Translations under genes and position numbers: made by a program | Assembly: GCA_017499595.2 (NCBI GenBank) | Contig: CM039007.1 | Location: 62,001 to 126,000 of the forward strand | DNA: 64,000 nt | Origin: Psilocybe cubensis | Taxonomy: Eukaryota | Direction of reading: 5' to 3' | The notes under the pieces: model-generated | The model's input: only the letters and a program-made list of their open reading frames with translations | What the model was told of the DNA's origin: nothing | Database searches by the model: none | In this document: piece by piece, positions 25,370 through 28,029 of the stretch | Numbering within the stretch: position 1 is the stretch's first letter | How the letters are laid out: each line of letters opens with the position of its first letter

Positions 25370-26560
25370 ATTTATATTATATTATATATATATTATATTA
25401 TTACAAAGCGTGACGCTGAATCGTAAAGACTCGTCATGCCACGCTCCGCGGTGGCCCACTAAAACAAGTGCACGTGAGTGCACGCGAGTGCAGTGCAAGT
25501 GCACGCAAGTGCAGTGCAGTGCAAGTGCAGTGTAACACAAGTGCATGTGACATAAATGTGACATAAATTAGAAGGTTATCGGAGACGAGTCAATTATTGT
25601 ATAATTGCCAGCAGAATCTCCAGCTATAAGCATACTTTTTAATGTTACCCAATTGCTTAATCCGAATAGCGGAGGTTTTAGCAGGCAGACATTGTTTTGC
25701 TTGATGTAGTACCTCATCATTGTAGAGAGAATATTCAAACTTATTTTCAATTTATTTCGCCCCAAGTTGCCCAAAGAGAATAAAAAACACCATTCGGGAG
25801 AATGGGTACACCACACAGACCGAAATATGTAAGTTTTATGTTTCATTTGATCATACTCCAAGGCACAAGGTGTATTTACAACGAGTTCATTGGTCCATGT
25901 GACGACAGATCACAAGTCCGTGACAACACATCCCTGGCAGTGCAATGTGACATAAAATGGCGCACAAACTGTCTGAAGCATATTTTAGAATAAATAGTCT
26001 AACAGAGGCAGTATTCAAAACTAATGCTAGCAGCAAAAATTGTTCATTTGCCTCAGACCTCAGTTGTACGAGCAAAACATGGCATGTTCTCCTCACTCGG
26101 CATGCACCGGCACCTTAGTCCCGAGGAAATAATTGTGACATATTGGCACATTTGTCACACGCGACTCTGCACTTGCATTGCACTTGCATACACTTGCATG
26201 CACTTGCATGCACTTGCGTGCACTTATTTTTCTATTTGCCCCTGTTAGGAATCGACTTAAGTCAAGAGAGAAGAATGCCCAAAGACCAAGTTGATATCGA
26301 AGCTGGGGTCTGACTACTGACCCCAGGACCCTATATATACATGGAGACCGGAGTAACTACTTCCCGGACCAGAGTACTCGACATATGACAACTATCAATA
26401 GATGAAACAGGAGAACGATAGACGTGGGACCGAACACAAAGATAGAACAAGGCATGACAGCGTGGGACCGTAACAGATAACGATAACGGATAGGGGTGGC
26501 ACCAATACGTACCCTGACATCACCTCCCCTCTAAAGGTCGGTGTCCCAACGACCTGGTCT

Positions 26561-27457
26561 TCACCGTGGACGGTTTGCACCAAAGACACGAGGCGGTCCA
26601 CCGCCACGACGCGCGGTCTGAATTCCCTCCCTAGGCTGAACAGGCCCGGGGCGAGAGTAACCGTCAGAGTGTTGCTGCGGAGCCCTGAGAGCGTCCACCT
26701 CCATAGGCGAACCAGGGGCAAGCGACGAGGATGGGCTGGAGCGAGTGTCAACAGCCGTAGGAGTGGGCGAGTGCGGAGAAGCCGTCCCGGAACGGGGTGT
26801 CCGCGTAGTTGGGGTAGAGCTCGAGGTTGGAGTAGGAGAAGGAGGTTCAACGACGAGGGTAGGAGGGGCAGCAGTGGGCGCAGGAGGCTGTTTAGGCTTC
26901 TTGGACCTAGGGTTGCGGATGCGACGACGGGCAATCCGCTTGCCGATAGCAGAGAGAGCATCACCGACTTCACGAGCGGTGCCCCTGATAGTGACGGCAC
27001 GCAAACCGGAGGTGACGACGGGGGAGACTGAGATCTTTGCATGCGAGATGTCGTGGATTTGGCGTAAGCCAGTTCCCGCGCGCCCTATGACGTGGCCAGC
27101 CTGTTCGTCCGCAATAGACAGGGTAGTAACGATCTTCTCGAGGGCGGCTTTGGTAGTGGTAGAGCGGATGGATTGGGAGTGCGGGGGCCCTGTAGTAGGG
27201 GTAGAGGTAGGTGCAGCCGGGCGTTCCTTCCTAGAGGTGCGTCGAGCGCGAGGTGCGCGAGCAGAGGGAGTGGGAGCGGCAGGCGGTTTGGGTAGGGAGG
27301 CTGTGAGGCGTTCGAGTTTAGACTCGATGGCAGACAGTCGGTCATCAACCTTTTTATCAGCGTCAAACCGGACTTGCTGCGCCCTAAAGAGGAGGGCGAA
27401 ACGGTCGTCGAGAGACATCGTCATGAACCCATCGTAAGGCGAAGGAGGGTCGGCCAT
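26561..27457 (-). CDS. KH-domain RNA-binding protein encoded by the LTR element (298 aa, intronless)
   Basis: Type I KH signature TLSIADEQAGHVIGRAGTGLRQIHDISHAKISVS...RAVTIRGTAREVGDALSAI (GxxG loop GRAG). N-terminal coiled coil; C-terminal Gag-like PMEVD motif. The ORF is sense to the element. Confidence 0.85.
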   Translation of the reverse strand: MADPPSPYDGFMTMSLDDRFALLFRAQQVRFDADKKVDDRLSAIESKLERLTASLPKPPAAPTPSARAPRARRTSRKERPAAPTSTPTTGPPHSQSIRSTTTKAALEKIVTTLSIADEQAGHVIGRAGTGLRQIHDISHAKISVSPVVTSGLRAVTIRGTAREVGDALSAIGKRIARRRIRNPRSKKPKQPPAPTAAPPTLVVEPPSPTPTSSSTPTTRTPRSGTASPHSPTPTAVDTRSSPSSSLAPGSPMEVDALRAPQQHSDGYSRPGPVQPREGIQTARRGGGPPRVFGANRPR

Positions 27458-27535
27458 AGAGTATAGTAGGTGGGGGCAAGGTAGAGTGGAGTAGACGAGC
27501 GCTGCAGTGGATAGAGTACCAGGGCAACGTTGGGT

Positions 27536-27610
27536 AGCTTCGATATGCTGTTAGGAATCGACTTAAGTCAAGAGAGAAGAATGCCCAAAGACCAAGTTGA
27601 TATCGAAGCT
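27536..27610 (-). promoter_or_regulatory. Self-priming PBS (27536-27546) and its 11-nt complement in the 5' LTR (27600-27610)
   Basis: On the minus strand ATATCGAAGCT begins 2 nt after the 5' LTR. It is the exact complement of AGCTTCGATAT in the LTR, which lies 27 nt downstream of TATATATA (27638-27645). Confidence 0.8.
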
Positions 27611-28029
27611 GGGGTCTGACTACTGACCCCAGGACCCTATATATACATGGAGACCGGAGTAACTACTTCCCGGACCAGAGTACTCGACATATGACAACTA
27701 TCAATAGATGAAACAGGAGAACGATAGACGTGGGACCGAACACAAAGATAGAACAAGGCATGACAGCGTGGGACCGTAACAGATAACGATAACGGATAGG
27801 GGTGGCACCAATACGTACCCTGACAGCCCCTGTGATTAGATCAAAAATTCGAACGCCCACTCGCAAACGGAGCTCAAATATATCAAAGAAACTCTGCAGT
27901 GATAATTCATTATCAAACCCCCGCATCCCACATCTACATGTGTCCGCTTCTATGATCCCTTTATTACCGTTGAGCGCTCACCATTAATACGTGGGAGTAT
28001 CCCGCCTAACACAACATAATATCATGGTT

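Follow-up and report, generated by a model that had tools for sequence, protein, structure and literature searches.

The window analyzed here is a 64,000-nt stretch of Psilocybe cubensis DNA (assembly GCA_017499595.2, contig CM039007.1, positions 62,001 to 126,000). It harbors a complete long terminal repeat (LTR) element of 1583 bp at 26243-27825 on the minus strand. The element is a young, non-autonomous LTR retroelement without a reverse transcriptase or capsid gene, and its sole gene encodes a protein with a K homology (KH) domain. Very likely, it represents a family of self-priming, non-autonomous, KH-encoding LTR elements. Throughout a deep family whose proteins have diverged to about 35% identity, the KH gene lies in LTR elements and is kept by purifying selection. 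This family-wide LTR setting and the putative self-priming primer-binding site (PBS) go beyond the preliminary description of this DNA, which had been made from the sequence of the window by itself.

Anatomy of the KH-encoding LTR element

The features of the element are as follows, with the basis of each in parentheses.

26238..26242, no strand: target-site duplication GCCCC, left copy (repeat comparison; empty-site reads)
26243..26519, minus strand: 3′ LTR in the element sense, 277 bp, TG..CA (100% identical to 27549-27825)
26520..26532, minus strand: polypurine tract AGAGGGGAGGTGA, abutting the 3′ LTR (sequence reading)
26561..27457, minus strand: sole open reading frame (ORF), 298 aa (P0001), with a predicted coiled-coil helix, a KH domain, a disordered tail, and no cysteine (ORF, Pfam, AlphaFold2)
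26597..26716, minus strand: tail motifs PGSPMEVDALR (residues 248-258) and YSRPGPVQPREGIQTARRGGG (residues 267-287) (conservation in many relatives)
26927..27133, minus strand: type I KH domain, residues 109-177 (Pfam KH_1, AlphaFold2, Foldseek)
27299..27412, minus strand: N-terminal helix, residues 16-53, with predicted self-association (AlphaFold2, predicted local distance difference test [pLDDT] ~90)
27458..27535, minus strand: 5′ leader, 78 nt, C-rich and G-poor, C 0.44 and G 0.12 (base composition)
27536..27546, minus strand: PBS ATATCGAAGCT, 2 nt after the 5′ LTR (exact complement of 27600-27610)
27549..27825, minus strand: 5′ LTR in the element sense, 277 bp (repeat comparison)
27600..27610, minus strand: predicted self-primer and putative transcript start AGCTTCGATAT, with CCCC directly before it (complementarity)
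27638..27645, minus strand: TATA box TATATATA of the LTR promoter (sequence reading)
27826..27830, no strand: target-site duplication GCCCC, right copy (repeat comparison)

Both LTRs are 277 bp long, identical at all bases, and start with TGT and end with ACA; the 5-bp duplication GCCCC lies on either side of the element. We read the element on the minus strand because the polypurine tract, the TATATATA boxes, and the only long ORF all agree on that strand. A TATATATA box is present in each LTR in the same orientation as the ORF, and a second copy of the self-primer segment lies in the 3′ LTR at 26294-26304. With paired TG..CA LTRs, a target duplication within the 4-6 bp range, and a PBS and polypurine tract in the expected places, the structure is that of an LTR retrotransposon. 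The intact ORF takes up 897 of the 1029 internal bases, leaving no room for pol. One 298-aa ORF with KH_1 as its only Pfam match is not the gene content of an autonomous Ty3/Gypsy or Ty1/Copia element. Within the window, the LTR and the interior occur as a single copy. The identical LTRs, target duplication, polypurine tract, and intact ORF given in the preliminary description were all found, and the ORF is indeed in the sense orientation, given that the element runs on the minus strand.

The PBS pairs with the LTR of the element itself

The bases after the 5′ LTR are unlike the 3′ end of a tRNA. Instead, ATATCGAAGCT (27536-27546) is the exact 11-nt complement of AGCTTCGATAT (27600-27610) in the 5′ LTR, a segment that begins ~35 nt downstream of the TATA box, straight after CCCC. 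To place this in the family, we used 36 metagenome loci at 34-70% protein identity, obtained from a contig scan with the family alignment. The same layout was found in 23 of the 36 loci, with 10-13 nt of exact complementarity and the primer segment about 30-35 nt downstream of TATA. In the window and the related loci, the PBS starts 0-2 nt after the LTR end, and the related loci have a TATA-like box at the equivalent position. In one further locus, L017, the pairing spans the ends of its contig, which brings the total to 24 of 36 relatives. In L016 and L024, the pairings are each broken by one mutation.

The pairing is maintained while its sequence changes. We found 15 distinct primer sequences, each with a matching changed PBS; examples are ACCTTGATAT, ATCTTTGCAATA, TAGACTTGATAT, ACCTTAGAATTA, AGCTTTGAAAT, and AGTCTTGATATT. 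Complementarity was counted per locus with shuffled and non-self controls. It reached at least 10 nt in all 24 own pairs, compared with 7 of 210 non-self pairs between versions, and averaged ~5.5 nt for shuffled LTRs. Formal pair counting on a MAFFT alignment was dropped because indels inside the primer shift the arms out of register.

Passages of PMC2864245, PMC6317226, and PMC4600332 deal with an arrangement, described for Tf1 and proposed for Tj1, the Tf1/sushi group, and the Tcn1 clade, in which the 5′ end of the transcript folds onto the PBS and is cut to yield the primer; the relevant parts of PMC6317226 and PMC4600332 describe self-priming in Tf1/sushi and predict it in Tcn1 chromoviruses. 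From the sequence, we infer that the PBS of the KH element is of this Tf1 self-priming type, and the spacing from the TATA box suggests that the primer segment would form the 5′ end of the RNA. A scan of viral_contigs for the PBS/LTR-end pattern gave 0 matches.

The KH gene is carried by LTR elements across a deep family

A word-based protein search returned 40 relatives, the nearest of which were named Psilocybe cubensis. The named hosts are all Agaricales, namely Psilocybe cubensis, P. cf. subviscida, Agrocybe pediades, Dendrothele bispora, and, for a partial protein, Termitomyces. A phmmer search of 1.84 billion representatives gave 387 matches at E ≤1e-3, 86 at 1e-10, and 20 at 1e-30. The near matches are single-KH proteins of 250-350 aa, and the far ones are ordinary multi-KH host-type proteins with 26-33% identity.

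Among the 36 metagenome loci, the KH ORF is flanked by direct repeats in 12, with a start-to-start spacing of 1.25-1.6 kb; several of the flanking repeats are cut by contig ends, and repeat lengths of 77 or 127 nt look like assembler cycles, which identical LTRs produce. A purine run followed by TGT(C/T/A)A(G/T)GG lies downstream of the ORF in 23 of the 36 loci and in the window. Taking PBS pairing, L017, and the polypurine junction together, at least one LTR hallmark stands beside the KH ORF in 31 of 36 loci. The remaining loci are short or decayed, and a clear non-LTR setting was found in 0 of 36.

Complete ORFs of 265-334 aa are kept in ten loci. The contig group L016-L036 consists of decayed copies with many Arg-to-Cys/His changes and frameshifts. 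The ratio of nonsynonymous to synonymous substitutions (dN/dS, Nei-Gojobori method) between intact copies was 0.14-0.43 in 11 of 12 pairs, and the twelfth was saturated at synonymous sites. Because a passenger would not be kept in this way, the KH protein contributes to the propagation of the element.

Several side observations concern these relatives. In a comparison that includes P0004 and P0009, the Agrocybe pediades protein is 76% identical to the window protein, whereas the proteins named Psilocybe cf. subviscida are 53-54% identical; the closer position of A. pediades may have arisen by transfer between species or because old element lineages were sorted. Three loci (L009, L002, L028) have the order interior-LTR-PBS-interior, that is, circularly permuted or in tandem with one shared LTR, and assembler cycles, tandem arrays, or one-LTR circles would each account for this order. 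In two other loci (L014, 155-600; L032, 700-1314), the KH ORF contains or adjoins an A/T-rich insert with long inverted repeats, which looks like a small foldback insertion.

Copy number, recent movement, and mutation of the element

The protein cluster at 90% has 14 members, 11 of which are 298 aa long and named Psilocybe cubensis; these eleven paralogs sit on contigs of seven different sizes, 3.05-4.68 Mb. Two raw DNA read sets labeled as the same species (X14 and X15) were aligned to the window at 90% likeness. Read depth was ~27.7 (X14) and ~27.5 (X15) in the single-copy right flank and ~387 (X14) and ~279 (X15) in the element interior, which suggests ~14 and ~10 copies, respectively. The LTR bins in X14 sum to ~49 LTR equivalents, more than two per full copy.

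Position 26237 was joined directly to 27826 by 20 reads in X14, 24 reads in X15, and one X3 contig. The skipped 1588 bp equal the element plus one copy of the duplication. Because the joining reads approximate single-copy depth, the insertion is absent from most or all genomes in the X14 and X15 samples, whereas the strain of the window carries it. The empty site and the identical LTRs together show recent transposition. The element had been described earlier as one of a recently mobile, non-autonomous family, and the identical LTRs, the empty site, the ~10-14 copies, and the eleven 298-aa paralogs support a family that is mobile and multi-copy.

Differences among the X14 copies, at the listed places, comprised C>T 45 and G>A 67 versus A>G 22 and T>C 9. 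Cytosine deamination in silenced repeats would be expected to leave such a skew. The window copy itself shows no loss of CpG (observed/expected 1.04). The more mutated paralogs carry many Arg-to-Cys/His and Ser-to-Leu changes. The skew and the amino acid changes suggest that the KH element family may undergo methylation-linked mutation or mutation resembling repeat-induced point mutation.

The KH protein

Pfam KH_1 matched residues 111-171 of the 298-aa protein with an E value of 5.7e-9 (36 bits versus a gathering cut-off of 21.5). The GXXG loop is GRAG at residues 125-128, and all 27 of the 27 relatives in the alignment keep both of its glycines, G125 and G128. An AlphaFold2 model built with 27 relatives had a mean pLDDT of 65.5, a low value owing to disorder in two thirds of the chain. 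The model consists of a long helix at residues 16-53 (pLDDT ~90) and a KH fold at 109-177 (pLDDT 88-95), with the remainder disordered. DSSP assigned the KH fold as strand 109-116, helix 117-124, helix 126-138, strand 141-144, strand 152-159, and helix 161-177, in the order beta-alpha-alpha-beta-beta-alpha. The KH_1 score above the gathering cut-off and the GXXG loop between two helices identify a type I KH domain.

The nearest structure found by Foldseek was KH3 of hnRNP K (1zzj; E 5e-7, template modeling [TM] score 0.85, root-mean-square deviation [rmsd] 1.3), and KH3 of PCBP2 (2p2r) reached a TM score of 0.90. The top matches ranged from E 5e-7 to 1e-6, with target TM scores of 0.85-0.90, rmsd of 1.2-1.3 Å, and ~30% identity. 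According to their titles, the structures of the closest KH domains all include C-rich strands. The KH domain of the 298-aa protein is predicted to bind single-stranded nucleic acid. A search of the ESM Atlas returned Basidiomycota KH clusters alone, at 0.85 and 0.81, below the level at which a match is more than a lead. The preliminary description had named a KH domain with a GRAG loop and had asked whether a profile search would find the fold at all; profile, model, and structural neighbors all bear the KH domain out.

The KH domain is followed by a basic stretch (177-189) and then by a Pro/Ser/Thr-rich tail. Many relatives share two motifs of this tail, PGSPMEVDALR (248-258) and a C-terminal QTARRGGG block. 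The first contains the PMEVD motif pointed out in the preliminary description, where a likeness to the end of fungal Ty3/Gypsy Gag was suggested; the motif is real, and members of the KH family conserve it. Cysteine is absent from the whole protein.

Three copies of residues 1-62 were predicted to pack, mostly in register, with a score of 0.73 compared with 0.01 for the best of three controls. The runs had at least 88% contact agreement and a partner pLDDT of at least 81. In the calibration of the score mark, 21 of 30 same-chain pairs reached the mark compared with 0 of 23 single chains, and for eukaryotes the numbers were 17 of 29 and 0 of 30; the calibration used two copies and the oligomer job three, and the alignment was not used. 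This prediction supports self-association of the N-terminal helix. Of the coiled coil proposed earlier, the helix at 16-53 is predicted with confidence, and its self-association has the support of this modeling.

Compared with the 298-aa ORF, the 275-aa gene models in P. cubensis are without 23 aa, and those of 266 aa in P. cf. subviscida are without 21 aa at the same place. The corresponding residues 67-89 (window 27190-27258, minus strand) are encoded by 69 nt that start with GC and end with AG in the window copy. This stretch may be either a prediction artifact or a small intron, and we treated it as a gene-prediction choice.

Search for a helper element and for Gag similarity

A Pfam search of the 298-aa protein with E values up to 1 showed no Gag family. 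The AlphaFold2 model, which consists of helix, KH domain, and disorder, lacks a capsid-like fold, and this cysteine-free protein has no CCHC zinc knuckle. Among longer proteins (523-2000 aa), none was found that shared the whole protein, and residues 238-298 gave 97 candidates of 523-2000 aa, none at E ≤10; both are weak negatives. The preliminary description had proposed a Gag-like scaffold and a Gag tail. That part was not borne out by Pfam, by the model, or, within the limits of these weak negatives, by the longer proteins, in which the tail was unmatched.

Four ORFs of the window were checked as helper candidates and had no Pfam match. They include an 1847-codon open frame at 48724-54267 (minus strand), which was rejected as a helper gene and looks like a low-complexity, host-like exon. 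Ten ORFs flanking the related loci gave matches to copia-gag, endonuclease, and DUF4939 only, all below the Pfam curated cut-offs.

Two gene models of P. cubensis (P0006 and P0007) have an unrelated N-terminal sequence fused to the C-terminal half of the KH protein, and are likely nested transposon insertions annotated as single genes. The N-terminal part of P0006 resembles a Tf2-type integrase SH3 segment, a weak hint at E 0.001 and 19.5 bits versus a Pfam cut-off of 30. The P0006 fusion suggests that self-priming Gypsy elements of the Tf1/sushi or Tcn1 type may exist in P. cubensis and nest with the KH family.

Neighboring features in the window

The left flank (25461-26230) is a ~770-bp repeat unit that adjoins the element. 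At its two ends, 25461-25533 and 26164-26230, lie arrays of a 10-nt TGCACTTGCA-like unit that are inverted relative to each other. Its read depth is 15-30 times that of the single-copy flank, and reads join both arrays on opposite strands. This repeat looks like a foldback element or a miniature inverted-repeat transposable element. The 1847-codon frame at 48724-54267 lies in a G+C-rich stretch (0.56) and encodes a low-complexity, Ser/Gly/Pro/Glu-rich sequence. A long A-rich/CA-repeat tract on the plus strand follows it (48566-48727). The frame is probably a large exon of a host gene.

Proposed mechanism

We propose that the TATA promoter in the LTR drives transcription of the element and that the first 11 nt of the transcript would fold back onto the site after the 5′ LTR, leading to Tf1-type self-priming of minus-strand synthesis. 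Reverse transcriptase/RNase H, integrase, and probably the particle would be borrowed from an autonomous Tf1/sushi- or Tcn1-like Gypsy element of the same genome. The KH protein presumably oligomerizes via its N-terminal coiled coil, and its hnRNP K/PCBP-like KH domain, together with the basic stretch, would bind single-stranded nucleic acid. It may thereby coat the C-rich RNA of the element in cis, like LINE-1 ORF1p, which would give this RNA an advantage in reaching the helper machinery or in winning reverse transcription. The conserved tail motifs would be the likely docking part towards the helper.

Coating in cis is proposed because the leaders of these elements are C-rich and the nearest solved KH domains were bound to C-rich strands. 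In all 10 of the 10 elements examined, the leader that runs from the PBS to the ATG is rich in C and poor in G (C 0.35-0.49, G 0.08-0.16), and the leaders carry repeated CUCUAC and CCCCCAC-like words. Taken as a whole, a self-priming, helper-dependent, KH-encoding LTR family with an RNA-coat protein appears to us the somewhat better-than-even explanation. The RNA-coat and packaging role of the KH protein is the tentative part of it, for which we stop slightly short of an even chance.

Several points weigh against this explanation. Repeat contigs from metagenomes can be chimeric, as seen in L018 and L020, whose 5′ U3 parts are mismatched, and the terminal repeats of 77 or 127 nt resemble assembler cycles. 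The dN/dS pairs are copies of unknown host relationship, and purifying selection means that the protein matters, from which a packaging role does not follow. Oligomerization is predicted by one model-based score, and the transcription start and the expression of the element are predictions from DNA. What RNA the KH domain targets is guesswork; the coding strand is C-rich throughout (coding-sequence C 0.28-0.39), so the C-richness of the leader is not specific to it. No helper element was found: the window has no reverse transcriptase or integrase gene, and the flanks of the related loci yielded only unrelated transposable element remnants.

Alternative explanations

The same observations have to be weighed against three other readings of the KH ORF. 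It could be a highly diverged Gag in which KH replaces the zinc knuckle of the nucleocapsid and which co-assembles with the Gag of a helper via a common C-terminal motif. The ORF does occupy the gag position, first after the PBS, and its product combines an N-terminal helix and a domain for nucleic-acid binding with conserved motifs in the tail. However, the Pfam search for Gag families, the disorder of the model outside helix and KH, and the lack of cysteine all speak against it, as do, more weakly, the empty searches of longer proteins with the whole protein and with residues 238-298. We consider a diverged Gag improbable. At the other extreme, the ORF might be a passenger, either a captured fragment of a host KH gene drifting neutrally, as the preliminary description had allowed for a single copy, or a host gene between two solo LTRs. 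KH is a common host domain, and the distant matches are indeed multi-KH host-type proteins at 26-33% identity. Yet LTR elements carry the ORF even in relatives at ~35% identity, each of which has a matching PBS/primer pair of its own; dN/dS is 0.14-0.43, the copies number ~10-14, and other read sets show a precise empty site. A passenger is scarcely credible on this evidence.

Purifying selection implies a function without saying which one, so the KH protein might serve the element otherwise than by packaging. It could blunt RNA silencing, as the preliminary description had suggested, or methylation-linked mutation via small or nascent RNAs, or act as a translation or stability factor of the RNA. 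The C>T/G>A skew indicates a family under mutational defense, and countering this defense could pay. No similarity to known suppressors was found in Pfam or the ESM Atlas, however, and a suppressor acting in trans would benefit every element equally, and selection could hardly maintain it in a small parasite of a parasite. In addition, a coiled coil plus a domain binding single-stranded RNA is the layout of a cis-acting RNA coat. We regard such a non-packaging role as unlikely, though less so than a diverged Gag.

Comparison with known elements

The KH element resembles TRIM, SMART, and LARD elements in having LTRs, a PBS, a polypurine tract, and a target duplication, in lacking pol, in its small size (1583 bp), and in depending on a helper. 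Those groups are defined as non-coding, whereas the interior of the KH element is an ORF under purifying selection, and it is therefore not a TRIM as defined, close though its size and LTR length are to that class. LINE-1 ORF1p has a coiled coil followed by a domain that binds single-stranded RNA, and the HAL1 (‘half-L1’) elements of mammals are ORF1-only elements. The likeness to the KH element is a functional analogy only, namely a coiled coil with a putative single-stranded-RNA-binding domain on a retroelement that, like HAL1, has no reverse transcriptase of its own. The KH element is an LTR element and not a LINE, its domain is KH and not RRM, and there is no sequence relationship. BARE2 is a non-autonomous LTR element that interacts with the proteins of its helper and keeps a recognizable defective gag and pol related to those of the helper. 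It shares with the KH element the probable dependence on a helper, but the latter has no detectable Gag similarity. The KH3 domains of hnRNP K and the poly(C)-binding proteins are the closest solved folds and share the GXXG loop; those are multi-KH host proteins, in contrast to a single KH domain with a coiled coil and a disordered tail on a mobile element.

In Tf1/sushi and Tcn1-clade Ty3/Gypsy elements, as defined in passages of PMC2864245, PMC6317226, and PMC4600332, the PBS is likewise complementary not to the 3′ end of a tRNA but to a segment of the LTR that lies downstream of the TATA box. Unlike them, the KH element has no gag, protease, reverse transcriptase, RNase H, integrase, or chromodomain. 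It is likely a parasite of a Tf1/sushi- or Tcn1-type element, and not a member of these groups by gene content. A full-text literature search, covering the main texts of a limited collection, turned up no description of a KH gene in an LTR element. The KH-encoding mini LTR elements form a widespread mushroom family that is seemingly undescribed so far.

Significance

Small non-autonomous LTR elements are usually treated as non-coding hitch-hikers, whereas the KH family keeps its own gene over the long term. The kept gene has diverged to ~35% identity, yet with a dN/dS of 0.14-0.43, and it encodes a host-type RNA-binding domain and a predicted coiled coil instead of Gag. The family also adds natural covarying pairs of self-primer and PBS outside the autonomous Tf1/sushi elements. 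A set of gene models in Agaricales genomes named ‘K homology domain-containing’ or ‘hypothetical’ is explained as transposon genes.

A bolder idea, to which we give rather less than an even chance, is that in mushroom-forming fungi a mini-LTR lineage replaced Gag with an unrelated protein of the ORF1p type, combining coiled coil and KH, so that it would build its own ribonucleoprotein and need the enzymes of a helper but not its capsid. If true, an LTR element would here replicate in an RNA coat of the LINE kind, and the lineage would be a long-lived ‘protein-coding satellite’ of chromoviruses of the Tf1/sushi type. The KH family opens to experiment how a non-autonomous retroelement competes for the machinery of its helper, by cis-acting RNA coating or otherwise.

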